Positions 6,994 through 25,138 of a DNA stretch of 37,167 nucleotides are shown here, in pieces. Positions within the stretch are counted from its first letter, which is position 1. Every line of letters begins with the position of its first letter. The notes below the pieces were generated by a model. The model was not told the origin of the DNA. It saw nothing but the letters and a program-made list of their open reading frames with translations, and searched no databases. The position numbers were made by a program, and so were the translations under genes. Location of the stretch: assembly GCA_025923995.1 (NCBI GenBank), contig JAICEW010000018.1:1-37167 (forward strand), given 5' to 3'. This DNA is from Vicinamibacteria bacterium (GTDB lineage Bacteria; Acidobacteriota; Vicinamibacteria; Fen-336).

Positions 6994-7000
6994 GGCGCAC

Positions 7001-7029
7001 AATGTATGGACCCGCCGGCGAATTGTCAA
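7001..7029 (-). promoter_or_regulatory. Sigma70-like promoter on the minus strand (-35 TTGACA, 17-nt spacer, -10 TACATT)
   Basis: The hexamers were read off the reverse complement of 7001-7029. This AT-rich island sits in an otherwise ~70% GC region. Confidence 0.35.
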
Positions 7030-7080
7030 TGGTGATGTGTCGCCCGGGGTCAGCGTGGCCCCGCGTCCGGACGCGGCGGT

Positions 7081-7094
7081 ATGACAGGCGTCAT
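7081..7094. promoter_or_regulatory. Fnr/Dnr-type box ATGACAGGCGTCAT (ATGAC-N4-GTCAT), centred 63.5 bp upstream of the ATG at 7151
   Basis: Both palindromic half-sites are perfect. Four more copies of the same motif lie in other promoter regions of this window. Confidence 0.55.
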
Positions 7095-7150
7095 AGGGCG
7101 CTGGCCGAGGGCATGACCACAATGGTCGCGCGACGATCAGGAGGAGTTCC

Positions 7151-7768: not shown

Positions 7769-7800
7769 CCCTCACGCCGTCGGGGCCGCGGGCGTCGGTG

Positions 7801-8646
7801 CTACTGGCCGGCGATTCCGCGGTTGACCAGCACCTTCGCGACCACCCGGCGGTTCTGGGCCCGGCCCGCGGAGGTCTCGTTGGACGCGGCCGGCTGGGCC
7901 GTGCTCATCGCGCCCGGCGCGAGCATCCGGTGGAAGGGGATGCCGCCGTTCTGCGCCAGCCAGTTGACGACGGCCTGGCTGCGCTCCAGGCTGAGCTTCT
8001 GGTTGACGTCCGCGCTGCCCGAGGCGTCGGCGTACCCCTCGACGCCGATCATGTAGCCCGGCAGCTCCTTCGCCCTGGCGGCGATCCGCGCCAGCTCGCT
8101 CGCGCCCTCCTGCGAGAGGGCCGCGCTGCCGACCTCGAAGTAGACCGTCCCTTCCGCGAGGACGTCGTAGTCTCCCAGCTGTCCGAAGCGCCGTGTCAGC
8201 TCGGCCTGCTCGCCCTGGACCTGACCGATCGCCTGCTTGTTGGCGTCGACCTGGCCCTGGGTCTCCGCCAGGCCGGCCTGGATGGCGCGCGCCGTCTTCA
8301 GGTCCTGCGAGGCGAAGCGGACCTTGGTCGCGATGAGCTGGCCGTGGTCGTCGCCCACGCCTTCCACCTCGACCCGCAGGCCGGGGATCAGCGCCGTCGC
8401 CGCGGCGCCCTCCTTGAGGATACCCAGCCGTCCCTTCTTGACCTTGACGTCCGTGCTGGCGGTGAGCCTGGCGACGACGGTCCCCATCTCGTTCTTGAGG
8501 GTCATGCTCTCGCCGGCACGGGAGGTGATCACGCCGTCGATCTTCGTCTTCTGGCCGAGCGGGATCTCGCGGGCGAACGTCAGCGGCGCCGCCGACAGCA
8601 CCAGCGAGACGGCGAGGGATTGCGCGCGAAGCGGGATCAGCTTCAT
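7801..8646 (-). CDS. OmpA-family protein (C-terminal OmpA-like peptidoglycan-binding domain), signal peptide
   Basis: The C-terminal domain carries the OmpA_C hallmark (...GYADASGSADVNQKLSLERSQAVVNWL...). The N-terminal signal is MKLIPLRAQSLAVSLVLSAAPLTFA. Confidence 0.85.
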   Translation of the reverse strand: MKLIPLRAQSLAVSLVLSAAPLTFAREIPLGQKTKIDGVITSRAGESMTLKNEMGTVVARLTASTDVKVKKGRLGILKEGAAATALIPGLRVEVEGVGDDHGQLIATKVRFASQDLKTARAIQAGLAETQGQVDANKQAIGQVQGEQAELTRRFGQLGDYDVLAEGTVYFEVGSAALSQEGASELARIAARAKELPGYMIGVEGYADASGSADVNQKLSLERSQAVVNWLAQNGGIPFHRMLAPGAMSTAQPAASNETSAGRAQNRRVVAKVLVNRGIAGQ

Positions 8647-8686: not shown

Positions 8687-10357
8687 CTAATGCGCCGCCA
8701 CCGCCTCGACCTTCGCGCGTCCGAGGACGCGGGCGTCGAAAGCCAGCGCGAAGTCGCCGCCGCCCTGGGTCACCTTGAAGAGGACCTCGTTGCGGCCGGC
8801 CGCGAGCGGCAGCTCCAGCTCGTCCTCGCCCTTGCGCAGCGCCCGCATGACGTCGCGCGCGAACACGCGCCGGCCGCCCAGGAACACGGCCAGGCCGTCG
8901 TCGCTGCCCATCGAAAGGTGCAGCGTCGTCGCCCGGTCGGCCTGGAGCACGACGCGCGCGTACGCGACGACGTAGGAGCCGGTGAGTCGCGCGCCGATGT
9001 CGACGACGCCGTCGACGAGCGGCGCGCTCGTCCACGCGACGGTCGCAGGGTGGGTCTCCGGCGGCTGGGGCGTGTCGAAGGTGACGAGCGGGTAGGTGGG
9101 CGACAGCTCGACCGAGCCGAGGGCGACCACGCCGCCCTGCGGCCGCAGCGCCACGCGATAGGTGCCGGGCCTGGCCAGCGTCCGCAGGGAGCGGCCCAGC
9201 TCGTCGGCGTACGCGCGCTGCGCGCGTGCGTGGGCCTCGAAGGTGGGGAGGGACGGCATCATGAAGGCCGGCTTCTGCAGGCCCATCACGCGCCAGGCGT
9301 CGAAGTGCTGCTTCCAGCGGAACTGCGCGGCCTCCCACAGCGTCCGGCCCGCCACGGTCCAGGCCGCGCCGTCGAGCAGCGCCAGGTCGACGCCGCGGGC
9401 CAGCTCGTCCCTCGTGAACGTGCCGGCGGTCCTGCCGTCGACCGACAGCACGAGCGGGTCGTCGCCCGGACCGGGCGTCACCTGCAGGCGGAAGCGGTTC
9501 AGCTCGTCCTGGAGCGGAACGAGGCCGAGCGCCGGCCGCGCTTCCGGGGGGACGTAGAACGGCAGGAAGGGAAGTGTCAGGTCGAAGCGGACCTCTCCGT
9601 CGGCCGCGGCCACGTTGGCGGCAGTGACGCCCTGCGCGCGCACGCGGGCGCCGTCGACGACGATCGAGCCGACCTCGCGCGGGGCGTCGATGCGGCGCAG
9701 CGCGAGGTACGCCATCACCAGGTGGCCGGCCGCGTCGGGATGGATCGCGTCGGGGATCATCGTGAAGCGGGCCTCCTTCGCCTGCGCGCGGCGCTGCACG
9801 TCGAGCATCGGCTGGAACAGGTCGATGAGCGGCAGCCCGCGCTCGGCGGCGAGCCCGGCCAGGCCGCGCGCCATGCGCGCCAGCGTCTCGTTGTAGACCC
9901 CGTCGTCCTTGCGCAGCACGTCGTCCACCGGCGAGGTCGTGAACAGGACCTCTCGCGCGCCGGCGGCCCGGATGGTGTCGGCCAGGGCGCGCTGGCCGTC
10001 GAGGTAGCTGCGGTACGTGGTCTCGTCGTATGCCTTGTACCCGCCGTCGTTCATCCCGAAGTTGACGAACACGAGCGACGGGCGCACGGGGCCCACGTCC
10101 CTCGCGTATCGCTTGTGGCCGCCCGCGGCCGTGTCGCCGCTCCAGCCCAGGTTGAAGACCGCGAGGTCCCTGGCCGGGAAGCGCGAGAGCAGGAAGGTCT
10201 CGAGGTAGGCGGTGTAGAGGTTCTGCTCGGTGATCGAGTCGCCGTAGAAGACGATCGTCTCGCGGTCCTGCAGGCGGATCGGCGGGGCCGGCTCGTCGGC
10301 CCACGTGTTCGCACCGGACGCACCGAGCAGCAGTCCCCAGACGATCGCGACGCGCAT
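8687..10357 (-). CDS. SGNH/GDSL-family hydrolase (esterase/lipase) with a C-terminal extension, secreted
   Basis: SGNH blocks are present: FYGDSITE (block I), FVNFGMNDG (block III), DAIHPD (block V). ATG at 10357 is preceded by AGGAGG at 5-nt spacing. The signal peptide is MRVAIVWGLLLGASGANTWA. Confidence 0.8.
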   Translation of the reverse strand: MRVAIVWGLLLGASGANTWADEPAPPIRLQDRETIVFYGDSITEQNLYTAYLETFLLSRFPARDLAVFNLGWSGDTAAGGHKRYARDVGPVRPSLVFVNFGMNDGGYKAYDETTYRSYLDGQRALADTIRAAGAREVLFTTSPVDDVLRKDDGVYNETLARMARGLAGLAAERGLPLIDLFQPMLDVQRRAQAKEARFTMIPDAIHPDAAGHLVMAYLALRRIDAPREVGSIVVDGARVRAQGVTAANVAAADGEVRFDLTLPFLPFYVPPEARPALGLVPLQDELNRFRLQVTPGPGDDPLVLSVDGRTAGTFTRDELARGVDLALLDGAAWTVAGRTLWEAAQFRWKQHFDAWRVMGLQKPAFMMPSLPTFEAHARAQRAYADELGRSLRTLARPGTYRVALRPQGGVVALGSVELSPTYPLVTFDTPQPPETHPATVAWTSAPLVDGVVDIGARLTGSYVVAYARVVLQADRATTLHLSMGSDDGLAVFLGGRRVFARDVMRALRKGEDELELPLAAGRNEVLFKVTQGGGDFALAFDARVLGRAKVEAVAAH

Positions 10358-10434
10358 CCTCACCTCCTGACGCCCGCGCATTCTATGTTGTCGGGCGGGT
10401 CCGCGTTCCTCGCGCAACTCGTTGAAGTAGAGTG

Positions 10435-13020
10435 ATGGCCTTCGGTCAGAGGAGAGGGATCGTGAGCCATCGCAGCCGTGCCCTGCTCGTGGCCTTGCTG
10501 GCAGCGTCTCCCGCCGCGGCTCAGCCCACCGCGCAGGGCGTCGGGCCGGAGCGCAGGACGATCGTCGCGGGCGAGCGCTACCGCCGGAGCGGCTTCTACC
10601 GCCTGCTCTTCGGCGCGGACTATCGCGACCTGTGGACGACGCCGGTCTCGCTGCCCGTCCTGGACCTGCGGACGTTCGCGGGAGGCCTCGAGCCGGTGAG
10701 GATCGTGGGGCACGGGCAGAGCAAGGGGCTGGCGCTCAAGGGCGCGGACGGGCGGTCCTACACGTTCCGGCCCATCCTCAAGGACGCGTCCGGGCTGCTG
10801 CCCGTCGAGCTGCGGGAGTCGAAGGCGCGGGACTTCGTACAGGACCAGATGGCGTCGGGCCATCCGGCGGGGCACGTGCAGGTGGGCCCGCTGCTCGACG
10901 CCGTGGGCATCCTCCACAACGACCCGCAGCTCGTGATCATGCCGGACTCGGACGCGCTCGGCACGTTCCGCAAGGACTTCGCAGGCGTGCCGGGGGACAT
11001 CGAGGAGTTCACGGGCACCCCCGGCTTCAGGGGCACGCTGGAGACGCTCGACGGCGAGGGCATGTGGAAGCGCCTGCGCGAGAGCCCCGAGGTCCGCCCG
11101 GACGCGCGCGCCTACCTGAAGGCGCGGCTCATCGACCAGCTCATCGGGGACTGGGACCGCCATCGCAACCAGTGGCGGTGGGCGCGCGTCACCGGCCAGC
11201 CGCGCTGGCAGCCGATCCCGGAGGACCGCGACCAGGCGTTCGTGCGCTTCGAAGGGCTCGCCATCCGGAACCTGCGCCCGACGCTGCCCCTCCTCGTCAA
11301 GTTCGGCGACGACTACTCGAGCCTGCACGGCCTGACGTTCGACGGGTGGGACGTGGACAAGCGCATCCTGGCCGAGCTGGACAGGCCGGCCTGGGACGAG
11401 GTGTCGCGCGAGGTCCAGGCCGCCCTCACCGACCCCGTCCTGGAGTCGGCCGCGGGCCGCATGCCGCCGGAGTACTTCGCCAAGGACGGAGCGCGGCTGC
11501 TGCGCGGGCTCAAGAGCCGCCGGGCCAGGCTCACGGAACAGGCGTCGGACTTCTACGAGTTCATCAACGGGGCCGTGGACGTCCACTGCACGGACCAGGG
11601 CGAAGAGGTCGCCGCGCGGCGGCAGCCCAACGGCGACCTGGAGGTCGCAGTCGCGGTCGGCGGCGCGGAGCCCTACTTCCGCCGGCTGTTCCGCGAGTCC
11701 GAGACGGGCGAGGTGCGGGTGTATCTCCTCGGCGGCGACGATCGCGTCGTCGTCACCGGGGGCCGCCACGGCGGCGTGCTCCTGCGCGTGATCGGAGGCG
11801 CCGGCCGAGACGTGCTCGACGACACGCAGGGCGGAGGGACGCGCTTCTCCAGCGCTGACGCGGACGACCAGGTGAACGCGGGGCCCGGAACACACTGGGA
11901 CCGCGACGAGTACGTCCCGCCGAAGAACAAGAGTGCTTCGTGGATCCCACCCAAGGACTGGGGGCGGCACACGTTCCCGGCCTTCCGCCTCACGTACGAT
12001 CCCGATCTGGGCGCGCTGCTGAGCGCGAGCCTGCACACGACCGGCCTCGGGTTCCGCCGCGATCCCTTCGCGGACAAGCAGACCATCCGCGCCACCTACG
12101 CCGCGCAGGAGAACGCGTTCCGCTTCAGCTACGACGGCGAGTTCCGCTTCGAGAACAGCAAGCGCCGCGCCGACGTGCTGGCGCTCGCCTCCGGCCTCGA
12201 GATCCAGCGCTTCTTCGGCTTCGGCAACGACACCGGGATCGTGGGCGATCCCGACGACTACGAGGTGAGGGTGCGCCAGTACGCGCTCGCGCCGCGGCTG
12301 ATGTGGGGCCTGGGCCGCAAGGCCGAAGCGTGGCTGGGGGCCATCGCCAAGTACACCGACTCGGACACCGAGGGTCATCCCGTGCTCGGCACGCCGGACG
12401 TCTACGGCGAGGGGCAGTTCGGGCAGGTCGGCGCGGTCGCGGGGCTGGAGGTCGACACCACCGACGACCTGGCGCTGCCCACCCGCGGCGTGCGCCTGGA
12501 CCTGGTGGGGACCGTGTATCCCGAGGTGTGGGACGCGGAGAGCACCTTCGGCAAGCTCTTCGCGGAGGCCGAGGTCTTCGTGGCTCCGAGCGAGGGATGG
12601 CAGCCCACCCTGGTGCTGGCCGCGGGAGGCCAGAAGGTGTTCGGCGACGCGCCGTTCTTCGAGGCCGCGATGCTGGGCGGCCGCTCGCGCCTCGGCCGCT
12701 ACGACCCGACGGGGCAGGGCGCGGTGCGCGGGCTCCGGCCCCAGCGTTACGCCGGCGAGAGCCTGCTGTACGGCCGCGCCGACCTGTACCTGCCGCTCAC
12801 GCGCGCGTCGTTCCTCGGCATCCCGCTGCAGCTCGGCGCGCAGGGCTTCGCCGATGTCGGCCGCGTGTACCTGGAGGGGGAGTCGTCGGACACCTGGCAC
12901 CAGGGCTACGGCGGCGGCCCGTACTTCGCGTCGCCCGGCCGGCGCAACATCCTGAGCCTGCTCTTCGCGCGGTCCGAGGGCCGCACGGCCTTCTACCTGC
13001 GAACGGGCTTCGCGTTCTAG
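10435..13020 (+). CDS. Large outer-membrane beta-barrel protein (Omp85/surface-antigen-like C-terminus), signal peptide
   Basis: The 861-aa ORF carries a signal peptide (ALLVALLAASPAAAQ). The C-terminal half is Gly/Tyr/Phe-rich and ends ...LRTGFAF, the terminal-Phe beta-barrel signature. Confidence 0.65.
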   Translation: MAFGQRRGIVSHRSRALLVALLAASPAAAQPTAQGVGPERRTIVAGERYRRSGFYRLLFGADYRDLWTTPVSLPVLDLRTFAGGLEPVRIVGHGQSKGLALKGADGRSYTFRPILKDASGLLPVELRESKARDFVQDQMASGHPAGHVQVGPLLDAVGILHNDPQLVIMPDSDALGTFRKDFAGVPGDIEEFTGTPGFRGTLETLDGEGMWKRLRESPEVRPDARAYLKARLIDQLIGDWDRHRNQWRWARVTGQPRWQPIPEDRDQAFVRFEGLAIRNLRPTLPLLVKFGDDYSSLHGLTFDGWDVDKRILAELDRPAWDEVSREVQAALTDPVLESAAGRMPPEYFAKDGARLLRGLKSRRARLTEQASDFYEFINGAVDVHCTDQGEEVAARRQPNGDLEVAVAVGGAEPYFRRLFRESETGEVRVYLLGGDDRVVVTGGRHGGVLLRVIGGAGRDVLDDTQGGGTRFSSADADDQVNAGPGTHWDRDEYVPPKNKSASWIPPKDWGRHTFPAFRLTYDPDLGALLSASLHTTGLGFRRDPFADKQTIRATYAAQENAFRFSYDGEFRFENSKRRADVLALASGLEIQRFFGFGNDTGIVGDPDDYEVRVRQYALAPRLMWGLGRKAEAWLGAIAKYTDSDTEGHPVLGTPDVYGEGQFGQVGAVAGLEVDTTDDLALPTRGVRLDLVGTVYPEVWDAESTFGKLFAEAEVFVAPSEGWQPTLVLAAGGQKVFGDAPFFEAAMLGGRSRLGRYDPTGQGAVRGLRPQRYAGESLLYGRADLYLPLTRASFLGIPLQLGAQGFADVGRVYLEGESSDTWHQGYGGGPYFASPGRRNILSLLFARSEGRTAFYLRTGFAF

Positions 13021-13060
13021 TCTCGACCCGTCGTCGGGACGGTCGGCTAGACTCGCGGCC

Positions 13061-13900
13061 ATGAGACATTCCGCCCTCTTGGCGCTCGTTCTGGCCCTCG
13101 CAGGCAGGTCCGCGCAGGCGGCCGAGCTCGAGCTGACCGGCTTCGTCGGGCTGACGCTGCCCTTCTACGAACAGACGTTCCCGATCGACCTGCGCCCGCC
13201 CGCGCAGCCCATCCAGGGCATCCAGATCCTGCAGGTCGAGCCGCTGCGCCTCAACGCGAAGGGGAGCTACACCTTCGCGGGCGCGGCCACGATCTACTTC
13301 GGCGCGCTCGGCATCGAAGGCCGCTACGACTCGGCCGACGCGGACCTGACCGCCGATCCGCCGGTATACTCGATCCGGCTTTCGAGCCCGTTCCCGAGCT
13401 TCACCACGAACCTCCAGCCCGCCCCGACGGTCGTGTCCCTCGCCGCCCTCACGCCGCTCTCGCTGAACCTGAAGATCCGCACCTCGGGTGCCGTCCGGTT
13501 CTTCGTCTCGGGCGGCATCAGCTACCTGCCCGACTTCCAGCTCGCGGTGCGCCAGCCGCTGAACCTGCGCTTCGCCGGAGTCGGCCTCCCGCCCGGATTC
13601 GACCTGGGCACGCTCACGGCGGAAGCGATCTCGCGGCCGGACGATCCCGAGGAGGGCAGCCGGCTCGGGGGCAACGGAGGGCTCGGCCTGCAGGTCGGGC
13701 TGGGCGAGCACCTGGCGCTCGTGGGCGACGCGCGGGCCTTCTACTTCCCGAAGCAGGTGCTCGAGTGGCGCGTCACCCAGACGGGCGGCGCCGTCGCGCT
13801 GCCGCCCGCGCTCGTCCAGTCGATCGAGCAGCAGCTGGAGCCGGTGCGGTTCAACCCCGCGTACTTCCACCTGCAGGGCGGGCTGGCGCTGTCTTTCTAG
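13061..13900 (+). CDS. Small outer-membrane beta-barrel protein (OmpW/OmpA-barrel-like), signal peptide
   Basis: The signal peptide is MRHSALLALVLALAGRSAQA. Alternating hydrophobic beta-strands end in ...GGLALSF. The stop codon overlaps the convergent regulator gene's stop. Confidence 0.65.
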   Translation: MRHSALLALVLALAGRSAQAAELELTGFVGLTLPFYEQTFPIDLRPPAQPIQGIQILQVEPLRLNAKGSYTFAGAATIYFGALGIEGRYDSADADLTADPPVYSIRLSSPFPSFTTNLQPAPTVVSLAALTPLSLNLKIRTSGAVRFFVSGGISYLPDFQLAVRQPLNLRFAGVGLPPGFDLGTLTAEAISRPDDPEEGSRLGGNGGLGLQVGLGEHLALVGDARAFYFPKQVLEWRVTQTGGAVALPPALVQSIEQQLEPVRFNPAYFHLQGGLALSF

Positions 13901-14583
13901 GCGCGGGTCAGCTCCTCGAGGGCCGCGCGGTCGGCGAGGACGAACCCGTCCTTCTCGGTCTCGAGGATGCCTTCCTTGCCCCAGCGGCTCATCAGGCGGA
14001 TGCAGGTCTCGATGGTCGTGCCGGTGAGGTCGGCCAGCTCCTGCCGGGTGAGGACCATCGGGATGAAGACCGCTCCCTCGCGTGCTCGACCCACCCGGTC
14101 CGCGAGCTTCAGGAACAGGTGCGCGAAGCGGGTCTCCACGCGCGCGCCCGCGACCTCCGGGATCCGCTGCGCCAGCTCGACGATGCGCCTCGTGAACGCG
14201 GACAGCAGGCCGCGCACGAGGGACGGGTGCTTCTCGAGCAGCGCGAAGAGCGGGCCGCGGCGGACGAGGAGGCAGGTCGTGCGGTCGAGCGCGATCGCGC
14301 TCGCCGGGAAGGGCCGGCCCTCGTAGGCCACGACCGCGCCCACGGGATCGCCCGGCCCGAAGATCTCGAGGATCACTTCCTTTCCGGACGGCTGCAGCTT
14401 CACCACCTTGACGCGGCCGGTGAGGACGGTGAGCAGGAAGTCGGAGGGGTCGCCTTCATTGAAGATGACCTCCCCCTTGTCCCACGACTTCACCAGCGCG
14501 ACTTCCGCCAGGCGCCGGCGGTCGTCGTCGGAAAGGCCGCGGTAGAGGGACGCGGTCCGGAGCGCCTCGCCGACGGGGTTCAA
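13897..14583 (-). CDS. Crp/Fnr-family transcriptional regulator (cNMP-binding domain plus C-terminal HTH; no N-terminal Cys cluster, so Dnr/NnrR/Nss-like rather than Fnr proper)
   Basis: The cNMP-binding fold and HTH (ELADLTGTTIETCIRLMSRWGKEGIL, with E..R in the recognition helix) are present. TTG start lies 18 bp downstream of the FGE-like gene stop, so it is probably co-transcribed with the nos operon. Confidence 0.8.
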   Translation of the reverse strand: MNPVGEALRTASLYRGLSDDDRRRLAEVALVKSWDKGEVIFNEGDPSDFLLTVLTGRVKVVKLQPSGKEVILEIFGPGDPVGAVVAYEGRPFPASAIALDRTTCLLVRRGPLFALLEKHPSLVRGLLSAFTRRIVELAQRIPEVAGARVETRFAHLFLKLADRVGRAREGAVFIPMVLTRQELADLTGTTIETCIRLMSRWGKEGILETEKDGFVLADRAALEELTRA

Positions 14584-14600
14584 GATGGGTCGATCTTACG

Positions 14601-15809
14601 CTATGGCCGGACCGTCCCTCCGCCCAGGATCGCGGCCACCCTGAAGCCGAGGTCGTCGCTGCTGAGCTGGGGCTGGAACTCCTCGCGGTAGGCGAGCTGG
14701 AGCCGCACGGCGCTCGCGCTGTACCACGAGCCGCCACGCGTCACGCGCATGCCGGGAAGGGCGTCCAGGTTGCGGGCGTCCTCGCGGTAGGGGTTCTTCG
14801 CGTTGTAGGGACGGAACAGCGACTGCGTCCATTCGCGCGCGTTGCCGGACGCGTGGAACACGCCGTACCGGTTGGGCCGGTAGCCGTGTGCCGTCGCCTC
14901 GAGCCCGACCAGCGTGGTGGCGGCGCCGGGGTTCTTGCGCCAGTTGTACTGCCCGGCCTCCCGCTCGCTCAGCTCCATCCCGATCCCGTAGTCGAAGCCG
15001 TCGGGGCCGCGCGCGGCCTTCTCCCACTCGGCCTCGGTCGGCATGCGGTAGAGCCAGCGCCCGTCACCGAGCCGGCGGGTCAGCCACCGGCAGTAGGCGT
15101 TCGCCTCGTACCAGTTCACGAGCACGACGGGCAGGTCGTCGCGCCCGAAGCGCGCGTAACGGGGATGTGAGGGAACGAGGCGCGCCGTCGCCTCCGAGAG
15201 GCCGTGCGACCGCCAGGCCCAGCCGGCGTCCGTCCAGCTCGAGCGATCGCCGTACCCGCGCGGGTCGGCCAGGAACGCGCGGAACTCGCGGTTCGTCACC
15301 TCGAACGCGGCCAGGTGGAACGACGGCACCCAGACGGCGTGCGGATGGCCCGGGTTGTGGCGATCGCCCATGGTGAAGGAGCCGCCGGGCACGAAGACGA
15401 ACCCCGGCGCACGATCGTCGAGACGCGCCGGCCGCTCGGACGCGACCCGGCGCACGGTCACGGGCCAGGCGTCGCCACCGTCGGGCGGCTCGGCCTCGGG
15501 GCCCGACGTCACCGGGAAGAGCTGCCGCTCGCCCGCGAGCTCGGCTTCGACGAAGTAGCGTCCGGGCGGCAGCCAGGACGCGTCGCCCTCGAGCGGCACC
15601 GGCTGCGCGTCCTCGAGCGTGGCTCCCGTCCGGCGCAGCGACACCGAGGCGCCCGCCGGGTTGACGATCCGCAGCTGGATCTCGCCGCGCGCCGAGTGAC
15701 GCGACCGCAGCGCCCCTGCCAGCTCGCGACGGGCGTACGCTCCCGCGCCGGAGAGGAGCGCGACGGTGGCGGCCGCCGCTGCCGCCACCGCCCAGAGGCG
15801 CCAGCGCAC
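14601..15809 (-). CDS. FGE-sulfatase (SUMF1/DUF323) domain protein, NirV-like, with N-terminal signal/anchor
   Basis: SUMF1 motifs are present (FVFVPGGSFTMGD, NWYEANAYCRWL, RMPTEAEWEKAARG, RGGSWYS). There is only one Cys, so the catalytic Cys pair of true formylglycine-generating enzymes is absent. GTG start sits 13 nt after the fasciclin gene stop. Confidence 0.8.
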   Translation of the reverse strand: MRWRLWAVAAAAAATVALLSGAGAYARRELAGALRSRHSARGEIQLRIVNPAGASVSLRRTGATLEDAQPVPLEGDASWLPPGRYFVEAELAGERQLFPVTSGPEAEPPDGGDAWPVTVRRVASERPARLDDRAPGFVFVPGGSFTMGDRHNPGHPHAVWVPSFHLAAFEVTNREFRAFLADPRGYGDRSSWTDAGWAWRSHGLSEATARLVPSHPRYARFGRDDLPVVLVNWYEANAYCRWLTRRLGDGRWLYRMPTEAEWEKAARGPDGFDYGIGMELSEREAGQYNWRKNPGAATTLVGLEATAHGYRPNRYGVFHASGNAREWTQSLFRPYNAKNPYREDARNLDALPGMRVTRGGSWYSASAVRLQLAYREEFQPQLSSDDLGFRVAAILGGGTVRP

Positions 15810-15821
15810 GAGGACAGCCCC

Positions 15822-16298
15822 CTACTGGGGCGGCAGCAGGACGGTGTCGATGGCGTGGACCATTCCGTTGGTGCAATCGATGTTCGCCTTGACCACCTTC
15901 GCGCCGTTCACGGAGACGGCGGCGCCCGTGACCGCGAAGGTCACCGGCTTGCCCTGTGCCGTGCCCGTCTGCTTCACCAGCTTGAAGTCGTCGGTGGTCC
16001 ACTTCGACGTGAGGACGTGGTACTTCAGGACCTCCTGCAGCTTCGCCTTGTCCTTGGCCAGGCCGGCGAGCACCTCCTTCGGGACCTTGGCGAACGCCTC
16101 GTCGGTGGGCGCGAACACCGTGTAGGGCCCCGGCCCCTTCATCACGCCGACGAGGTCGGCGTCCGTCAGCAGCTGCGCGAGCGTCTTGAAGCTGCCGGCC
16201 GCGACCGCGGTGTCCACGATGTCCTTCGGCTGGGCGAGGGCCGGCCGCGCGAGCGCCACGAACGCGGCGACGGCCCACAGGCACGAACGAGTCGTCAT
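15822..16298 (-). CDS. Fasciclin (FAS1) domain protein, secreted
   Basis: The FAS1 signature is present (YTVFAPTDEAFAKVPKEVLAGL...KYHVL...NGMVHAIDTVLLP). AAGGAGG lies 4 nt upstream of the ATG, and the signal peptide is recognisable. Confidence 0.85.
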   Translation of the reverse strand: MTTRSCLWAVAAFVALARPALAQPKDIVDTAVAAGSFKTLAQLLTDADLVGVMKGPGPYTVFAPTDEAFAKVPKEVLAGLAKDKAKLQEVLKYHVLTSKWTTDDFKLVKQTGTAQGKPVTFAVTGAAVSVNGAKVVKANIDCTNGMVHAIDTVLLPPQ

Positions 16299-16323
16299 GG
16301 GACCTCCTTGGCGATGCGTCGTC

Positions 16324-17154
16324 CTAGAGATCGGCCCGGCGCAGCCGCCGCAGGGCCAGCCACGCCGGTGCCGCGAGCCAGAAGAGCAGGGACAGGCCGA
16401 TCACGACTCCCGCCCCGCGGGGACCGCCCGTGAAGCGGAACAGGGCGAGCGAGGCCGCGCCGAAGGCGCCGGTGCCCTCGATCCCGAGCAGCGCTCCCGT
16501 CCGCACGGCGGCCAGCGGGTTCACGACGGCCGCGACCATCAGCACACGCGACGCCGTGCCCGAGGGCAGCAGCGACGCCGCGCCCAGCGCGAGCAGGTCG
16601 AGGAACACGACCGCCACGAACCAGACCACGAGCGCCAGCGCCAGCGCGCGCGTCCGCTTGCGTCCCACGGAGCTGGCCGAGAGGAGCGCGGCCAGGCCCA
16701 GGAAGATCGCGGTCGTGACGAGCGAAGCCAGCACGAGCAGGAGGAAGCCGCCCAGCCCCTCCGCTCCCGACTGCGCGTAGACGACCATCCCGGCCGCGCC
16801 GAAGCCGACGGCCTGGGCGGCGCCCAGCGCCTGGAGCAGGCCCAGAAGCTTGCCGAACAGGATCGTGCCGCGGGAGACCGGTTGCGAGAACGTGAGCTCG
16901 GCCGCGCCGCGCTCGGGTGCCAGGGAGAGCACCCCGATCACGAGCGCCGTGAGCGGCACGATGAGGAGCACGAGCTGGACGAGCGACACGGCCGTGCGCG
17001 CGAAGTCCTGCACGCCGTGGCCGCCCGAGAGGACGTACCCGGCTCCGGCGACCGCAAAGGCGAGGACGCCAAAGACGGCGGCGAAGATCTGGGTCCAGCG
17101 GGACCGGAGCGCCAGCACCAGCTCCTCGCGGGCGAACAGGGCGAGGTGGCTCAT
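16324..17154 (-). CDS. nosY: NosY, ABC-2 type permease of the NosDFY system
   Basis: It is a 276-aa polytopic membrane protein. Its ATG overlaps the nosL stop (ATGA), and it lies downstream of nosF and nosL. Confidence 0.8.
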   Translation of the reverse strand: MSHLALFAREELVLALRSRWTQIFAAVFGVLAFAVAGAGYVLSGGHGVQDFARTAVSLVQLVLLIVPLTALVIGVLSLAPERGAAELTFSQPVSRGTILFGKLLGLLQALGAAQAVGFGAAGMVVYAQSGAEGLGGFLLLVLASLVTTAIFLGLAALLSASSVGRKRTRALALALVVWFVAVVFLDLLALGAASLLPSGTASRVLMVAAVVNPLAAVRTGALLGIEGTGAFGAASLALFRFTGGPRGAGVVIGLSLLFWLAAPAWLALRRLRRADL

Positions 17155-17585
17155 CGTTCGCTCCCACCCGGGAACACCTCGGACCGCGCGACCGGTGTCC
17201 CTGCTCGCGCCGCCGGGTCCTGGTCCCTGGACGCCGCGTCCGCGTGCGCGATCAGGTGCGATCCCATCGGCGTGGCCAGTTCGGGCACGCGCGTATAGGT
17301 CGCGTCCTGGCCACGCACCCACGCACGCGTCCGATGGTCCGCGACGAACACGGCCGCGTGCTGCGGCGCTCGTCCCGCCTTCAGGTAGCCGGCCAGACAG
17401 CCCAGGTCGTCGAAGAACCGGGGCACCTCGCCCGGGGCCACGATCTGCGCGGCGAAGCGTGCTTCCGACACCGCCATGCGGCAGGCGGCGCAAGCCTCCT
17501 GGCGCGTGTCGAGCGGTGCCGGCTCGAGCGCCCCGCCCGCGCAGCCGGCCAGCACGATCAGGAGCGCCAGGGTCGCCCCTCTCAT
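17151..17585 (-). CDS. nosL: NosL, copper-chaperone lipoprotein for N2O reductase
   Basis: The lipobox LLIVLAGC is followed by the NosL-like motif EACAACRM...AAQIV...RFFDDLGC. AGGAG lies 7 nt upstream of the ATG. The ATG overlaps the nosF stop, and the nosL stop overlaps the nosY ATG. Confidence 0.75.
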   Translation of the reverse strand: MRGATLALLIVLAGCAGGALEPAPLDTRQEACAACRMAVSEARFAAQIVAPGEVPRFFDDLGCLAGYLKAGRAPQHAAVFVADHRTRAWVRGQDATYTRVPELATPMGSHLIAHADAASRDQDPAARAGTPVARSEVFPGGSER

Positions 17586-18496
17586 GCGTGCGCTCCTGGC
17601 GGCGCGTCCGCGACCAGCTCGCGGTACAGCGCGTCGAGCCGTCCGTCCTCCGCCGTCAGCCCGCGCACCTCGACGCCCAGCGCGCGCACGGCCTCGAGAA
17701 CGCGCGGGCGGATCCCGGCCGGGCCGGGCACGACCAGCTCCTCGCCGGCCCAGGTGGCGGCCGGCGCGACCGCCCTCACCGCGACGAGCAGGCCCGCGGG
17801 GTTCGCGGCCAGTCGGAGGCGCATGACTCCGCGCTCGGACAGGCGGTCCTTCAGCTCCGTCGCGGTCAGGCGGGCCGCCAGCCGCCCGCCCACCAGCACC
17901 GCGAACCGATCGGCGAGCCGCTCGACGTCGCCCAGGTGGTGCGAGGTGAAGAGGACGGCACGGCCGTCGTGGCGCGCCCGTTCCACGATGCCGTAGAACG
18001 CGCACAGGCCGTCCGGGTCGAGGGCCGCCGTGGGCTCGTCGAGCAGGAAGACGGGCGCCTCCGCCAGCAGCGCGACCGCGAGGCCCAGGCGCTGGACCAT
18101 GCCTCCCGAGTAGGTGCCGACGGCGCGACCGCCGGCGCCGTTGAGGGAGGCGAAGCGGAGCACCTTCGTCACGCGGTCGGCCGGCGCACCGCGGAGCTTG
18201 CGGTAGAACTCGACCACCTCCGCTCCCGTGAGCGCCTCGGGGAAAGAGACCTTCTGGGGCAGGAACGAGAGCACCTCGCGCGCGGCCGCGTCCGCGGCGG
18301 GGCGGGGCGGGTCGCCGAGCAGGACGTCGCCCGAGGTCGGCCGGATGAGACCGGCGGCGGCCTTGAGCGTCGTCGTCTTGCCCGAGCCGTTGGGCCCGAG
18401 CAGTGCCACGACCTCGCCGCGCGCCACCTCCATCGAGAGGCCGTCGACGGCCAGCTGGCCGCCGAAGCGCTTCGTGAACGCGCGGTAGCGGATCAT
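17582..18496 (-). CDS. nosF: NosF, ABC transporter ATP-binding protein
   Basis: It has Walker A GPNGSGKTT, the signature YSGGMVQR and Walker B LLDEPT. The ATG overlaps the nosD stop by 4 nt. Confidence 0.85.
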   Translation of the reverse strand: MIRYRAFTKRFGGQLAVDGLSMEVARGEVVALLGPNGSGKTTTLKAAAGLIRPTSGDVLLGDPPRPAADAAAREVLSFLPQKVSFPEALTGAEVVEFYRKLRGAPADRVTKVLRFASLNGAGGRAVGTYSGGMVQRLGLAVALLAEAPVFLLDEPTAALDPDGLCAFYGIVERARHDGRAVLFTSHHLGDVERLADRFAVLVGGRLAARLTATELKDRLSERGVMRLRLAANPAGLLVAVRAVAPAATWAGEELVVPGPAGIRPRVLEAVRALGVEVRGLTAEDGRLDALYRELVADAPPGAHA

Positions 18497-19872
18497 CGCG
18501 CCCCGACTCGCATCGTCAGCGCGCCGAGGAGGGTCAGCGCGGCGGAGGCCACGAGGCCGATCGGGCTCGCGCGTCCCTCCCGCGGGCGGCTCGTCGGTAC
18601 GCGCGCCATCAGCGGCGGGCGGGCCAGCGGCTCGGGATCCTCGACCGGCACCGCGCGCAGGACGGGGAACGCGCGCTCGGCGGCGCCGATCGCGGCGGCC
18701 GCGAAGCTGTCGGCGAGCAGGTCGGCCGCGGTGAGGTTGCCGCGGAAGTGGTCGAAGACGCTCGTCAGCACGTACGGGCGGTCGCTGCGGCCGTCGCCGT
18801 CCAGGTCGGGCTCGTCGTTGCCGGACCAGTAGTTGCCGCGGAAGACGGTGTCCGTCCGGCGCGCGACCAGCTCGAGAGGGGACCGGTTGCCGACGAAGAC
18901 GTTGCCCTCGAAGCGATGGCCGCCCGCCGGGTCGTACAGGATGACCGCCACGTCCGACCCCGCGACCGCGTTGCCCTTGAGCGTGATGCGATGCGACCCC
19001 TCGATGAAGACACCGCGGGCGTTGTCGGCCACGAGGTTGTCCTCGGCCAGCACGTCGTCGCAGGTCTGGAAGAGCAGGCCGACCGACGCGAAGCCGCGGT
19101 TGCGCACGAAGCGGTTGCGCCGGAACACGATGCGCTTCGAGTACATGATGGCGGTGCCGGCCGCGCCGTTCTCGAACGTGTTGTCCTCGAACACGTTGTC
19201 GTCCGAGAACATGTAGTGCAGGCCGTAGCGCACGTCGCGCGCGGTGTTCCGCCGCAGCACGCCCCTGGAGGCGTTCTGGAGGTACAGGCCGTCGCGGACG
19301 TCCACGATCTCGTTGTCCTCGAACCGGAAGCCCTCGAGGTTGTAGGCGTGGATGCCGGATCCCTTCTCGCCGGCTTCCCTCCCGGGGATCCCGCGGATGC
19401 GGCACCGTTCGACCACCGCGCCGCTCGCCTCGCGCAGGTAGACGCCGAAGATGGCCTCCCGGATGTCGAGGTCGCGCAGCGTCGTGTCGCGCGCGGACGT
19501 GTGCACGCCGGCCGAGTCGAGCGAGAGGTCGCCCCCGCGGCGGCCGTCGATCGCGAACCCCTCGACGGTCACGCCATCGGTGCGGATGCGCACGACGCTG
19601 CCGCGTCCCGACCCCAGCAGGAGGGGCCGGCCGCGGCCGACGAGGCGCAGCGGCTTGTCGATGACGAGGTCGCCCGCGTACTCGCCTGCGGGGACCTCGA
19701 CCGTCGCGCCAGTCCCGGCGGCATCGACGAGCGGCTGGAGCGCGGAGACGTCGGCCGCGGCAGGCCTTCCTTCCTGCGCGGCCGGCGCGACCGCGGCCAT
19801 CTGGTCGGCCCTCGCGGACGCCGCGAGCAGGCACAGGGCGGCGGCGAGCGCCGCGCGCGGGACGTGGGTCAC
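18493..19872 (-). CDS. nosD: NosD, periplasmic right-handed parallel beta-helix copper-binding protein
   Basis: The signal peptide is followed by repeated NosD/parallel-beta-helix repeats (GIHAYNLEGFRFEDNEI..., GLYLQNASRGVLRRN...). GTG start lies 1 nt after the nosB-like gene stop. Confidence 0.9.
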   Translation of the reverse strand: MTHVPRAALAAALCLLAASARADQMAAVAPAAQEGRPAAADVSALQPLVDAAGTGATVEVPAGEYAGDLVIDKPLRLVGRGRPLLLGSGRGSVVRIRTDGVTVEGFAIDGRRGGDLSLDSAGVHTSARDTTLRDLDIREAIFGVYLREASGAVVERCRIRGIPGREAGEKGSGIHAYNLEGFRFEDNEIVDVRDGLYLQNASRGVLRRNTARDVRYGLHYMFSDDNVFEDNTFENGAAGTAIMYSKRIVFRRNRFVRNRGFASVGLLFQTCDDVLAEDNLVADNARGVFIEGSHRITLKGNAVAGSDVAVILYDPAGGHRFEGNVFVGNRSPLELVARRTDTVFRGNYWSGNDEPDLDGDGRSDRPYVLTSVFDHFRGNLTAADLLADSFAAAAIGAAERAFPVLRAVPVEDPEPLARPPLMARVPTSRPREGRASPIGLVASAALTLLGALTMRVGAR

Positions 19873-19873
19873 C

Positions 19874-20500
19874 TCAGGCCTCGCGGCGCCATTGGCGCCA
19901 GGCCATCGCCAGGGCGAGAAGGACGAGCACCGCCGCCGCGCCGAGCGCGTACGAGCCGAGCTGGGGATACGAGTAGACCTCGAAGTTGGCGAGCTTCTTG
20001 TACCCGAACAGCGGCGGCATGAACGGGTCCACGCGCACCGCCGCCTTGGGGTCGAGCTGGTGGCCGTACTGGTACATCTTGTAGGCGAAGGACCACAGCG
20101 CGAACAGGGAGAAGTAGAAGTACAGGACCGCCACGTCGACCAGGTGCGACGCCTTGCCCATCACCGCGGCCCTCAGGAACAGCAGCCCGATGATCCCGAT
20201 CACGAAGGGGAGCCACTTGAACTCGGTGAAGTCCTCCGTCACGAGGTCCTTCATCCCGATGTAGTGGTTGAGGACGTTGATCTCCTTCACGTCCTGGTTG
20301 TCGTTGCCCCCCTGGAGCTTGTAGCTGTAGATGTCGAGGCGCAGGCCGTCCTGGTACTGCGGCGCGAACATCGTCATGTTGTAGAGCGGCGCCACGTAGG
20401 CCGGCGCCAGGCACAGGAAGGCGAGCGCCAGCAGCACCCGCGGCGCCACGTCCAGGGGCGCGTCCAGGAAACGGTTCACCTTTTCGAGCGACCGGCGCAC
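19874..20500 (-). CDS. nosB: NosB-like integral membrane protein (clade II nos clusters)
   Basis: The 208-aa protein has several predicted TM helices. It lies immediately downstream of nosZ, as in clade II clusters. GTG start is preceded by GGAGGTG 4 nt upstream. Confidence 0.6.
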   Translation of the reverse strand: MRRSLEKVNRFLDAPLDVAPRVLLALAFLCLAPAYVAPLYNMTMFAPQYQDGLRLDIYSYKLQGGNDNQDVKEINVLNHYIGMKDLVTEDFTEFKWLPFVIGIIGLLFLRAAVMGKASHLVDVAVLYFYFSLFALWSFAYKMYQYGHQLDPKAAVRVDPFMPPLFGYKKLANFEVYSYPQLGSYALGAAAVLVLLALAMAWRQWRREA

Positions 20501-20525
20501 ATGTCACCTCCGGCGGGCAACGAAT

Positions 20526-20545
20526 GGGGTGCGACGCCGCACCCC
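20526..20545 (-). other. Hairpin GGGGTGCG-ACGC-CGCACCCC in the nosZ-nosB spacer
   Basis: The perfect 8-bp stem was read from the sequence. No U-run follows it. Confidence 0.45.
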
Positions 20546-20602
20546 GGCCCGAACCACGGACACGCGGCGAAGCGGGATCCACTCCCGCGAGCCGCGGGGG
20601 GG

Positions 20603-20632
20603 TCTGGGGGGTGCGGCGCAGCACCCCCCAGA
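20603..20632 (-). other. Hairpin TCTGGGGGGTGC-GGCGCA-GCACCCCCCAGA beginning 1 nt after the nosZ stop codon
   Basis: The perfect 12-bp stem was read from the sequence. It may be an intra-operon attenuator or mRNA-stabilising structure. Confidence 0.5.
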
Positions 20633-20633
20633 C

Positions 20634-22490
20634 TCAACGGACGATCAGGTAGCCCTGCATCTCCTGATGCAGCGCCGAGCAGAAGTTCGTGCAGTAGTAG
20701 GGGAAGACGCCCTTCTTCTTCGCCTTGAAGGTGACGGTCTTCGTCTCGCCCGGGTCCACGACGATGTTGATGTTGTAGTCGAGCAGCCCGAAGCCGTGCA
20801 GCTCGTCGGTGGTCTGCTCGATGTTGGTGATGGCGACCGTGACGTCGTCGCCTTCCTTGATCTCGAAGTCCGTGGGCGTGATGGTCGACCGCACCGTGAT
20901 CATCTTCACCAGCACCTTGCTGCCGGTGCGGGTGACGCCGGCGTCCTTCACGTCCCAGATGGCGTGGGGGTGCTTGTTCTCCTCCTTGGGGTACACCTCG
21001 ATGGGCTTGATCTTGTCCGCCTTGATGATCTGCGCGTAGTGCGGCTCGGGCTCGGTGAAGAAATCGAGCAGGAGCTTCATCTTCTCCTCGCTGATGTCCA
21101 CGAGCTGGGACGCCTCGGGCTGCGAGGGGCCGACCGACAGGTGCCGGCCGTGCGACAGCTTGTTGAGGCCGACCAGGTACTTCCCGTCGGGGCTCACGGT
21201 GTCGCCCTCGGCCGCGGTCAGGTGGCCGATGGAGTAGGACATCGGCACCTTGTCCACCACCTCCCAGCTCCCCAGCTTCCACTTGGCGATCGCGCTGTCC
21301 ACGAACAGCGAGGTGTAGGCGAAGCCGTCCGGACCGAACTGGGTGTGAAGCGGGCCGAGGCCGACCGGCACCTCGGCGTCCTTGATGGACTCGTACTTGA
21401 GGACGGGGATGCCGTCCTCGTCGCCGGAGAAGTCCTTGTTGCGCATCGCGGTCTGGACCTTCTCCCAGTTGAACGCGGTGGTGACGCCCTGCAGCTTGCC
21501 CGACCCGATGATGTACTTGCCGTCGGGCGCGACGTCGACGCCGTGCGGCGACTTGCCGCAGGGCATGAAGTACACGAGGCCGGGGTGCTTGGCGGGGTCG
21601 ATCACCTTCACGCCGCCGATCGCCTGCCCTTCGCCCTTCGCCGCCAGCTGCTCGGCCATCCTCCAGTCGACGGCGGCGATGTAGTCGCGGTCCTTCTGGG
21701 CGGAGGTGACCTCCAGCTTCCCGGTGGCGCGCTCGGTGTTGTACGAGGTGAAGAAGACCCAGCCGTCCGACACCTTCTTGCCGGCGTCGCCCAGGTCGTA
21801 GTCGAAGGGCGGCATCAGGATCTGCCACCCGATCGACATCGCGCCCGTGTTGGGGTCGATCTTGATCCCCGTCACGACGCCCTTGTAGTCGCTCGCGTAC
21901 TTCGCGACCTCGACCGCGGTGCCCTTGGGGATGGGGATCGAGAAGCGCGAGGCCATCACCGAGTACTCGGTGTTGGGCGTGACGAAGGCCGAGCCGTGGT
22001 TCCCCGACACGTTCGGCACGGGGCCGATGATCTGCTTCGTCTTGAAGTCGCGCAGGTCCACGCGGGCGACGCGGCCGTTCATCTCGTTCACGAACATCCA
22101 GCGGCCGTCGTAGTCCCCGTTCGTCTCCGACAGCGCGGGGTGGTGCACGTCGCCCCAGGTGAGGTCGCCCAGCATCGCCTTCGACTCGTCGTCGAAGCCG
22201 TAGCCGGTGGCCGGGTAGGGCGTGAAGACGGGGATGGTCGAGATGTGCCGGCCCGAGGGCAGGCCGTACACGTACATCTGGCCGGAGTGGCCGCCGGACG
22301 CGAACAGGTAGTACTCGTCGAGGTCGCCGGGGGCCACGTAGACCTTCATGGCCGCGTTGGCCACGTCGGACACGACGGCGCCCTTCTTGGAGCCCTTGGG
22401 AGCGCTGGGGGCGCAACGCGCCTGCAGGAGCCCGGCCGCGGCGATCCCGGCCAGCGTCGCGAGGACGGTGCCGGCACGTCTCGTCTTCAT
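20634..22490 (-). CDS. nosZ: Nitrous-oxide reductase NosZ, clade II (Sec-dependent) type
   Basis: It has the C-terminal CuA motif CTNFCSALHQEMQGY and the seven-bladed propeller CuZ-domain His pattern. The Sec-type signal (MKTRRAGTVLATLAGIAAAGLLQA) is not Tat. GAAGGAGG lies 5 nt upstream of the ATG at 22490. Confidence 0.95.
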   Translation of the reverse strand: MKTRRAGTVLATLAGIAAAGLLQARCAPSAPKGSKKGAVVSDVANAAMKVYVAPGDLDEYYLFASGGHSGQMYVYGLPSGRHISTIPVFTPYPATGYGFDDESKAMLGDLTWGDVHHPALSETNGDYDGRWMFVNEMNGRVARVDLRDFKTKQIIGPVPNVSGNHGSAFVTPNTEYSVMASRFSIPIPKGTAVEVAKYASDYKGVVTGIKIDPNTGAMSIGWQILMPPFDYDLGDAGKKVSDGWVFFTSYNTERATGKLEVTSAQKDRDYIAAVDWRMAEQLAAKGEGQAIGGVKVIDPAKHPGLVYFMPCGKSPHGVDVAPDGKYIIGSGKLQGVTTAFNWEKVQTAMRNKDFSGDEDGIPVLKYESIKDAEVPVGLGPLHTQFGPDGFAYTSLFVDSAIAKWKLGSWEVVDKVPMSYSIGHLTAAEGDTVSPDGKYLVGLNKLSHGRHLSVGPSQPEASQLVDISEEKMKLLLDFFTEPEPHYAQIIKADKIKPIEVYPKEENKHPHAIWDVKDAGVTRTGSKVLVKMITVRSTITPTDFEIKEGDDVTVAITNIEQTTDELHGFGLLDYNINIVVDPGETKTVTFKAKKKGVFPYYCTNFCSALHQEMQGYLIVR

Positions 22491-22512
22491 GATTGCCTCC
22501 TTCAAGGCGTCG

Positions 22513-23763: not shown

Positions 23764-23776
23764 TTCTCGCCTCTCA

Positions 23777-25126: not shown

Positions 25127-25138
25127 CGCTCCTCCTCC

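Follow-up and report, generated by a model that had tools for sequence, protein, structure and literature searches.

To our knowledge, the nitrous oxide reductase NosZ is the only biological sink of N2O. The acquisition of the CuA and CuZ centers by the Sec-exported, clade II enzymes is less understood than for those of clade I. Clade II NosZ of Acidobacteriota, especially of Vicinamibacteria, are among the most abundant soil nosZ groups worldwide (PMC13122619). A companion has been described for another copper N-oxide reductase, the nitrite reductase NirK: the later papers that cite its description present NirV as a protein of the FGE-sulfatase family (FGE, formylglycine-generating enzyme), encoded downstream of nirK and of unknown function (Jain and Shapleigh, 2001, as cited in PMC4770552 and PMC10356946). 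The nos gene lists published for Flavobacterium (PMC9697520), for wastewater metagenome-assembled genomes (MAGs; PMC11409646) and, in 2026, for Vicinamibacteria and L. pratensis (PMC13122619) hold neither an FGE-like nor a FAS1 (fasciclin) gene. No published link of nosZ to either type of gene was found in the full-text literature searched, a mention in subscription reviews remaining possible.

We analyzed a 37,167-nucleotide (nt) stretch of contig JAICEW010000018.1 (G+C 72%; hereafter the window), the closest protein relatives of which come from MAGs of Vicinamibacteria (Acidobacteriota). On its minus strand lies an entire nos locus of the clade II type, in which nosY is directly followed by two genes encoding a FAS1 protein and an FGE-fold protein. 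We describe the latter as the founding member of a new, distinct FGE-fold family that is a companion of nos clusters, in parallel to NirV. We further propose, at what we consider even chances, that the FAS1 and FGE-fold proteins form an accessory module in the periplasm that serves the biogenesis or upkeep of NosZ.

Searches with the FGE-fold protein returned 1184 homologs at E ≤ 1e-10, the best 120 of which are about 400 amino acids (aa) long and 57–98% identical to the query. The orthologous family spans 44–98% identity, and its members, also of about 400 aa, share an N-terminal anchor, a beta-sandwich and the FGE fold. The superfamily comprises 150,582 cluster representatives at E ≤ 1e-3, a handful of which are full-length orthologs. 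Among 75 aligned members, 74 positions are invariant, including those of RGGSWYSA, YNWxKN, H157 and GNAxEWT; RGGSWYSAS, YNW[RK]KNP, H157 and H319 are specific to the family. The invariance of these motifs points to strong purifying selection. Anaeromyxobacter provides the only named isolates among the members listed for the ortholog cluster.

Seventeen loci with enough flanking DNA, drawn through FGE-like or FAS1 proteins and designated here by L numbers, were compared. According to an earlier note on this DNA, its reading would fail if orthologs were never linked to nos or nir genes elsewhere. This is not so: the FGE-like ortholog is found inside a nos cluster in 12 of the 17 loci and within 10 kb of nos genes in 14, in both Acidobacteriota and Bacteroidota, these counts giving the frequency of the family in nos clusters and not the share of clade II nos clusters that have the gene. 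The nos-linked loci are those of Vicinamibacteria (the window and L001), Cytophagia (L002), Chitinophagales (L003), Bryobacteraceae (L004, where the FGE-like gene lies between nosL and nosY) and Pyrinomonadaceae (L005), together with L089, L090, L092, L095, L173 and L183. In L175 and L182, the gene is found 4–8 kb beyond nosY, past inserted genes. Since NosZ identity spans 68–92% across the linked loci, these do not represent a single clone. By comparison, nosZ, nosB, nosD, nosY and nosL were found near generic paralogs (28–36% identity) in none of about 150 loci among the matches listed. Scans for FGE-like genes with superfamily-generic patterns (EWEKAARG, TEAEWEK) gave at least five ortholog loci on genome contigs and at least three on metagenome contigs. 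The linkage of the family to nos is frequent, not universal.

The genes of the window and their junctions are as follows, in the order of transcription.
Positions 25645-27591, minus strand: FeS/FAD protein, from the open reading frame (ORF) and the Pfam annotation of its equivalents in L090 and L183.
Positions 25139-25648, minus strand: Rieske protein, on the same basis.
Positions 23777-25126, minus strand: cytochrome b, on the same basis.
Positions 22513-23763, minus strand: cytochrome c, on the same basis.
Positions 20634-22505, minus strand: nosZ, Sec-type, clade II architecture (Pfam nos_propeller, 1.1e-33, and Cupredoxin_1).
Positions 19874-20500, minus strand: membrane protein at the nosB position, without a family match and named from position and conservation.
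Positions 18493-19872, minus strand: nosD (Pfam NosD, 1.4e-34).
Positions 17582-18496, minus strand: nosF, ABC ATPase (Pfam and ORF).
Positions 17151-17585, minus strand: nosL (Pfam NosL, 2.7e-5).
Positions 16324-17154, minus strand: nosY, ABC-2 permease (Pfam and ORF).
Positions 16299-16323, minus strand: nosY–FAS1 junction, 25 nt, with a Shine-Dalgarno sequence (AAGGAGG) 4 nt upstream of the FAS1 ATG and no hairpin.
Positions 15822-16298, minus strand: FAS1 (fasciclin) protein, 158 aa, ATG start (Pfam Fasciclin, 2.1e-37).
Positions 15810-15821, minus strand: junction from FAS1 to the FGE-like gene, 12 nt (sequence and folding).
Positions 14601-15809, minus strand: FGE-fold protein, 402 aa, GTG start (Pfam FGE-sulfatase, 2.2e-49, residues 134-392).
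Positions 14584-14600, minus strand: junction from the FGE-like gene to the Crp/Fnr gene, 17 nt (sequence and folding).
Positions 13897-14583, minus strand: Crp/Fnr regulator, 228 aa, final gene of the co-directional block (Pfam cNMP_binding, 2e-20; HTH_Crp_2, 7.6e-15).

The coordinates and spacings given in the earlier note are correct: the FAS1 gene begins after 25 nt of intergenic sequence, and 12 nt separate it from the FGE-like gene, the start of which is the 13th base. The nos genes themselves overlap by 4 nt at nosD/F, nosF/L and nosL/Y. No terminator-like site was found on the minus strand from 12500 to 23900, junctions included, and RNA folding at the junctions was not better than that of shuffled controls (z = +0.9 to +1.45). 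Because of the small gaps (25, 12 and 17 nt) and of the lack of terminator-like hairpins, the FAS1 and FGE-like genes are, as had been predicted, almost certainly co-transcribed with nos. A search for FNR/Crp boxes (TTGATN4ATCAA, up to two mismatches) gave intragenic matches only, and a scan for sigma-70 promoters gave none, as expected at 72% GC. The two genes had been viewed as appended to the operon after nosY. Both do follow nosY; however, they are not terminal, as the Crp/Fnr gene starts 17 nt past the stop of the FGE-like gene. Since this regulator closes the block, the pair is embedded in the locus rather than placed at its edge. The best NCBIfam matches of the regulator are FixK/Fnr-like, every one under its cut-off; its gene occupies the same position in L089, and the gene beyond it (13061-13900) is convergent. 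In the window, nosL lies between nosF and nosY (nosD-nosF-nosL-nosY), as in all related loci examined.

The position of the FGE-like gene bears on its possible function. This gene is grouped with nosDFLY, which serve maturation, and away from the Rieske/cytochrome b/cytochrome c module upstream of nosZ (22513-27591 including the FeS/FAD gene, 74–87% identical to the equivalents in L090 and L183). This position suggests a role in the nosDFLY maturation line rather than in electron transfer. Alternatively, the anchored FGE-fold protein and FAS1 would dock NosZ to the Rieske/cytochrome b/cytochrome c module or to NosB, as subunits of a supercomplex. Such a structural role would agree with the use of FAS1 domains as accessory subunits of membrane complexes (CupS of NDH-1MS, LRC6 of the phycobilisome), with the ring-forming FGE-fold scaffolds PorK and GldK, and with the presence of the module in most nos-linked loci. 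We nevertheless hold it to be unlikely, given that the gene is found at the nosDFLY end and not by the cytochrome genes, and that the Anaeromyxobacter copy is not linked to nos.

The FGE-fold protein comprises the following parts.
Positions 15735-15797, minus strand: N-terminal stretch of hydrophobic residues (about aa 5-25), either a signal anchor or a signal peptide (sequence; helix at residues 2-40 of the AlphaFold2 model).
Positions 15456-15680, minus strand: family-specific beta-sandwich domain, aa 44-118 (AlphaFold2 strands with a predicted local distance difference test, pLDDT, of about 90; conserved in orthologs).
Positions 14634-15410, minus strand: FGE/C-type-lectin-like fold domain, aa 134-392 (Pfam, alignments and Foldseek).
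Positions 14682-14738, minus strand: degenerate 'catalytic' loop RGGSWYSASAVRLQLAYRE, aa 358-376, which replaces the Cu(I)-binding LCHxSYC motif (family-invariant, low pLDDT).

The N-terminal region with the beta-sandwich has no Pfam match, even at E ≤ 10. The FGE fold itself is supported by a phmmer match of 8e-18 to 6muj, and the AlphaFold2 model (pLDDT 80, predicted template modeling score 0.84) shows a helix at 2-40, the beta-sandwich at 44-118 and a fold of the FGE/EgtB type, with Foldseek matches to FGE (E about 1e-10), EgtB and OvoA. In agreement with the earlier note, core motifs of SUMF1 are conserved (TEAEWEKAARG, GNAxEWT, LGFR). The catalytic site is, however, lost. In a HMMER alignment to the S. 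coelicolor and human enzymes, the catalytic GGSYLCHDSYCNRYR corresponds to GGSW--YSASAVRLQ, and W--YSASAV stands in place of LCHxSYC when 6muj, 2q17 and 2aft are aligned, so that both Cu(I)-binding cysteines are absent. The single cysteine of the window protein (C240) is Ala or Gly in some orthologs, and no Cys is conserved across the 75 aligned members. Without the Cys pair, the protein cannot be a canonical FGE. As the earlier note had proposed, it is, on these alignments, not a working FGE, and canonical FGE chemistry is effectively refuted.

A working FGE, or a maturase of DUF1501 proteins or sulfatases, had been considered because the window contains a Cys-type sulfatase gene that runs off its end (35354-37167, plus strand; Pfam Sulfatase, 4.5e-64; CSPTR motif). 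DUF1501 genes, which we take to be related to the sulfatase superfamily, also follow the FAS1/FGE pair in four loci. Yet service to this sulfatase or to other sulfatase-like enzymes is very improbable: both cysteine ligands of Cu(I) are gone, the sulfatase gene lies 19.5 kb away on the opposite strand, and the orthologs track nos genes, not sulfatases. Moreover, no [CS]xPxR target motif was found in the proteins of the nos cluster. For its maturation, the sulfatase would depend on an FGE or on an anaerobic maturase, and no canonical Cys-pair FGE was noticed among the annotated ORFs of the window. The stretch that separates the nos locus from the glycoside-hydrolase/sulfatase region encodes a radical SAM protein (29385-30995, minus strand; Pfam 1.8e-20).

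It may also be asked whether the remodeled site performs another chemistry. Conservation in the family is strongest in the two low-confidence loops of the model, 272-296 and 360-376, the second of which replaces the former catalytic loop. His319 aligns with the Asn that precedes the GNxWEW motif of FGEs, and is conserved in at least 90% of the orthologs. This Asn is, we assume, a Ca2+ ligand in human FGE, in which case the Ca2+ site may be remodeled at His319. An FGE/EgtB-type scaffold with a remodeled active-site loop and with His157 and His319 could bind a metal and modify a small molecule or a NosZ residue, for instance in sulfur or thiol handling for CuZ or in oxidative repair. In favor of such an enzyme, the NCBIfam entries that the protein resembles most are SenA (3.1e-28) and EgtB (1.1e-26), in both cases by their C-terminal domains, the Foldseek matches to EgtB and OvoA equal those to FGE, and conservation is highest in the loops of the former active site; we also know of no established sulfide donor for CuZ. 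Still, the idea has a low probability in our view. The protein has neither a DinB_2 domain nor the His triad of sulfoxide synthases, and it reaches 99 bits where SenA requires 420. There is no conserved Cys, the nos-cluster proteins lack [CS]xPxR, and no biosynthetic genes are nearby. An EgtB/OvoA/SenA synthase as such was rejected, as only the C-terminal FGE-like part matches, the N-terminal DinB_2 is missing and scores are under the cut-offs.

The FAS1 protein has a Sec-type signal peptide, MTTRSCLWAVAAFVALARPALA|QPKD by inspection, followed by a domain whose Fasciclin match spans the full Pfam profile. Its relatives in the PDB are TGFBIp, periostin, R. sphaeroides Fdp and cyanobacterial CupS, and more than 120 metagenome homologs are 80–91% identical to it. 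Every one of the 12 loci with an ortholog of at least 60% identity has a FAS1 gene adjoining the FGE-like gene, in either order: FAS1-FGE in the window, L001, L089, L174 and L183, and FGE-FAS1 in L090, L092, L093, L173, L175, L181 and L182. Consistently, the independent hit lists for the FGE-like and FAS1 proteins have 16 identical 'longest contig' values in common. The gene is absent beside orthologs of 44–59% identity (L002-L005, L095 and Anaeromyxobacter), and a short contig, L176, carries a FAS1 gene with no adjoining FGE-like gene. FAS1 would be a lineage-specific partner of the FGE-fold protein, in Vicinamibacteria-type lineages. The pair stays intact even away from nos (L174, L181), which in our reading indicates a functional and possibly physical partnership of the two proteins.

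In Bacteroidota nos clusters, other genes take the place of FAS1 between nosY and the FGE-like gene: L002 of Cytophagia has a hemerythrin-like ORF with weak similarity to RIC/YtfE (4552-5100), and L003 of Chitinophagales a histidine-rich membrane ORF, read as fatty-acid-hydroxylase-like and without a family match (7082-7714). Hemerythrin-like genes recur in the nos or NO-reductase contexts of L002 and L181. In L181 (693-4165), hemerythrin and PAS genes separate the FGE-FAS1 pair from genes for a qNor-type nitric oxide reductase and a NapH-like polyferredoxin, about 6 kb away. In the window, genes for a hemerythrin-domain protein (27761-28366, plus strand) and a NapH/NosH-like polyferredoxin (Fer4_5; 28363-29427, plus strand) are divergent from the nos cluster. 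DUF1800-DUF1501 genes are found downstream of the pair in L174, L175, L181 and L182, which belong to one group of long-read metagenome contigs, a TrpB-like pyridoxal phosphate enzyme preceding them in L174 and L175.

Such neighborhoods leave room for a pair that merely travels with respiratory genes. FAS1 and a lectin-like FGE fold would then serve the envelope or adhesion, the classical use of FAS1 modules, and Crp/Fnr would co-regulate them with low-oxygen respiration, without any role in N2O reduction. The occurrence of the pair beside qNor/hemerythrin genes (L181), a heme-copper oxidase (L183) and DUF1800/DUF1501 genes (L174, L175, L181, L182), as well as the isolated occurrence in Anaeromyxobacter, would fit. 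However, nos linkage holds at 44–48% identity over two phyla, once inside nosL-nosY, and has no counterpart at the paralog loci listed; in addition, the FGE-like gene is retained in nos clusters without FAS1. We thus regard this explanation as improbable.

Some neighbors of the pair hint at copper. In L089 (7115-9415), L092 (7618-9906) and L175 (1997-4279), a TonB-dependent receptor is encoded between nosY and the FAS1/FGE pair. Among NCBIfam families, it best matches the TonB-dependent copper receptors of the NosA/OprC type (TIGR01778, 7.7e-53). The receptor is absent from the window; where present, it is preceded by an ORF of 124-129 aa at a conserved position, without a family match. In L183, genes for heme-copper oxidase subunits II and I (11233-13769) begin 21 nt after the FGE-like gene, placing a second copper enzyme downstream of the pair. 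The earlier note had suggested a copper-maturation role shared with NirV. The hints are circumstantial: the receptor beside the pair in three relatives, and a layout parallel to that of nirK, nirV and a Crp/Fnr gene.

In the accessory-module reading, the two genes would constitute a periplasmic module of clade II (Sec-type) nos, co-transcribed with nosDFLY and followed by the Crp/Fnr regulator. This reading can be given a more explicit form, which is much less certain than the reading itself. The N-terminal helix would tether the FGE-fold protein to the periplasmic side of the cytoplasmic membrane, where the FGE/C-type-lectin scaffold would bind apo-NosZ just after export, by an extended segment of it, or a copper-delivery partner, NosL or NosDFY. 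This binding would help the assembly or the upkeep of the NosZ copper centers. In Vicinamibacteria-type lineages, the soluble FAS1 protein would act as partner or adaptor and, where an OprC-like receptor is present, copper might arrive through it. A binding function for the FGE scaffold is suggested by precedents, namely Tsi3, PorK/GldK and NACHT-FGE fusions. Tsi3, immunity proteins of the type VI secretion system, are FGE folds used as protein-binding scaffolds (bioRxiv 10.1101/2021.05.21.445229). The fusions are among the nearest paralogs with an N-terminal match, the other being a stand-alone gene (L036). In the Nitrospirales contig L023, two of them (2836-5928 and 9485-12346) flank a reverse transcriptase gene (6779-7873), an arrangement that we take to be of the diversity-generating-retroelement type, with the FGE/C-type-lectin fold as variable ligand-binding domain.

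A number of points weigh against the accessory module. It is a case of guilt by association, and the loci were drawn through the proteins themselves. No nos genes are found within 10 kb of the Anaeromyxobacter ortholog (L087/L088, WP_242352333.1, 58% identity), in L174, which has mobile elements upstream, or in L181, where the pair stands beside a qNor/hemerythrin block. The recurrence of DUF1800-DUF1501 genes after the pair in four loci indicates that its two genes keep to each other more strictly than to nos. No FAS1 gene accompanies the orthologs of Bacteroidota, Bryobacteraceae and Pyrinomonadaceae. As regards copper, the receptor scores 180 bits against a family cut-off of 472, and no obvious copper-binding motif (conserved Cys, Met- or His-rich stretch) was found in the FAS1 or FGE-fold protein. 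Finally, the orientation of the FGE-fold protein is not straightforward. In the orthologs from Bacteroidota, KKR or K..R precedes the hydrophobic segment and net-negative charge follows it, which points to an N-in/C-out orientation. In the high-GC acidobacterial proteins, an Arg-rich juxtamembrane helix (RRELAGALRSRHSAR, residues 26-40), which is not seen in the Bacteroidota orthologs, directly follows the segment and violates the positive-inside rule. Periplasmic exposure of the FGE domain would thus rest mainly on the Bacteroidota orthologs.

The FGE-like protein had been likened to NirV, a comparison that called for a closer examination. S. meliloti NirV was recovered from pSymA by ORF and Pfam search (L084 22737-23651; Pfam FGE-sulfatase, 6.5e-42), beside nirK (23750-24880), and further NirV sequences were taken from Agrobacterium, Paracoccus and Phaeobacter plasmids; the plasmid tblastn matches H6, H19 and H31 were discarded, as nirK is not adjacent. 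S. meliloti NirV matches the window protein with a BLASTP E value of 8e-5 over 62 aa and an hhalign probability of 71%, and tblastn searches with NirV found dozens of generic FGE paralogs and no nos-linked ortholog. In a neighbor-joining tree with NirV and true FGEs (59 sequences, 223 columns, 100 bootstraps), the nos-linked family and NirV are each monophyletic in 100 of 100 replicates and are sister groups in none, bearing in mind that this is a distance tree of a divergent superfamily with NirV on a long branch. The mean distance from the nos-linked family is 2.57 for NirV, 1.39 for generic paralogs and 1.55 for Cys-pair FGEs. The missing Cys pair, which had been read as a likeness to NirV, is, by our own motif, also missing from 143 of 145 generic bacterial paralogs; so common an absence is not diagnostic of NirV. 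A tblastn search with S. meliloti NirK (E < 1e-4) found no nirK in the window, and in the ortholog loci matched only the cupredoxin region of NosZ in L003 and L090 (E about 1e-5). The relationship does not extend beyond the superfamily. An orthology with NirV was rejected in view of the separate clades, of the lack of nirK upstream and of the absence of NirV's GGC motif from the nos-linked family. As far as these comparisons go, the resemblance is an analogy, and NirV and the nos-linked family probably arose by convergent recruitment.

The family, conserved at the nosDFLY end of these clusters and without a label until now, is a concrete candidate for a missing factor of NosZ biogenesis or maintenance, and it could serve to mark functional nos clusters in metagenomes. 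A wider, tentative and rather doubtful reading can be added. FGE folds would have been recruited twice independently as partners dedicated to copper N-oxide reductases in the periplasm, NirV with NirK and the nos-linked family with Sec-exported clade II NosZ, this family being accompanied by FAS1 in Vicinamibacteria and sometimes by a NosA/OprC-like receptor. The ancestral ability of the fold to hold Cu(I), an unfolded Cys peptide, or both, would have been repurposed without the Cys pair. If true, this would supply a missing component of copper-center assembly or repair in globally dominant soil N2O reducers.

Comparison with other known systems helps to situate the family. True FGEs (human SUMF1 and the enzymes of S. 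coelicolor and T. curvata) share the fold and the core motifs of the FGE-fold protein; in contrast, they have two Cu(I)-binding cysteines where it has none, they lack its additional anchor and beta-sandwich, and their genomic partner is a sulfatase rather than nos. The nos accessory genes (nosD, F, Y, L and B; NosA/OprC) resemble the FGE-like gene in direction, operon-like spacing and synteny with nosDFLY. PorK/GldK of the type IX secretion system ring, Tsi3, PvdO and the C-terminal domains of EgtB, OvoA and SenA also use an FGE fold without FGE chemistry, several of them being periplasmic binding or scaffold proteins. They differ, however, in context and domain architecture, and the NCBIfam scores of the window protein fall below the cut-offs (92 against 350 bits for GldK, 57 against 500 for PvdO, 94 against 360 for EgtB, 99 against 420 for SenA). 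PorK/GldK was rejected on this score and because the context is nos, not type IX secretion. For FAS1, the single domain behind a signal peptide is also found in R. sphaeroides Fdp, cyanobacterial CupS and M. tuberculosis MPT70; no report was found of any of these beside nos or paired with an FGE-fold gene, the sole full-text co-mention of nosZ and fasciclin being unrelated.

The nearest parallel remains NirV. Both proteins have an FGE-sulfatase domain, an N-terminal hydrophobic anchor and no canonical FGE Cys pair. Their immediate gene neighbors also correspond: genes for a periplasmic copper N-oxide reductase come just before, and a Crp/Fnr gene just after. This gives nirK-nirV-crp/fnr in the Agrobacterium and Paracoccus plasmids (L177, L178), and nos genes, FGE-like gene and crp/fnr in the window and L089. 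On the other hand, NirV has 250-305 aa, no beta-sandwich and a conserved Cys in GGC[AS]VG, whereas the nos-linked family has the sandwich and no such Cys, and the partner enzyme is NirK in one case and NosZ in the other. NirV is thereby cast in a new light: each of these copper N-oxide reductases would carry an FGE-fold companion, acquired by convergent recruitment rather than through shared ancestry. This convergence adds to the interest of a biochemical logic common to both, which can be tested in either of the two systems.

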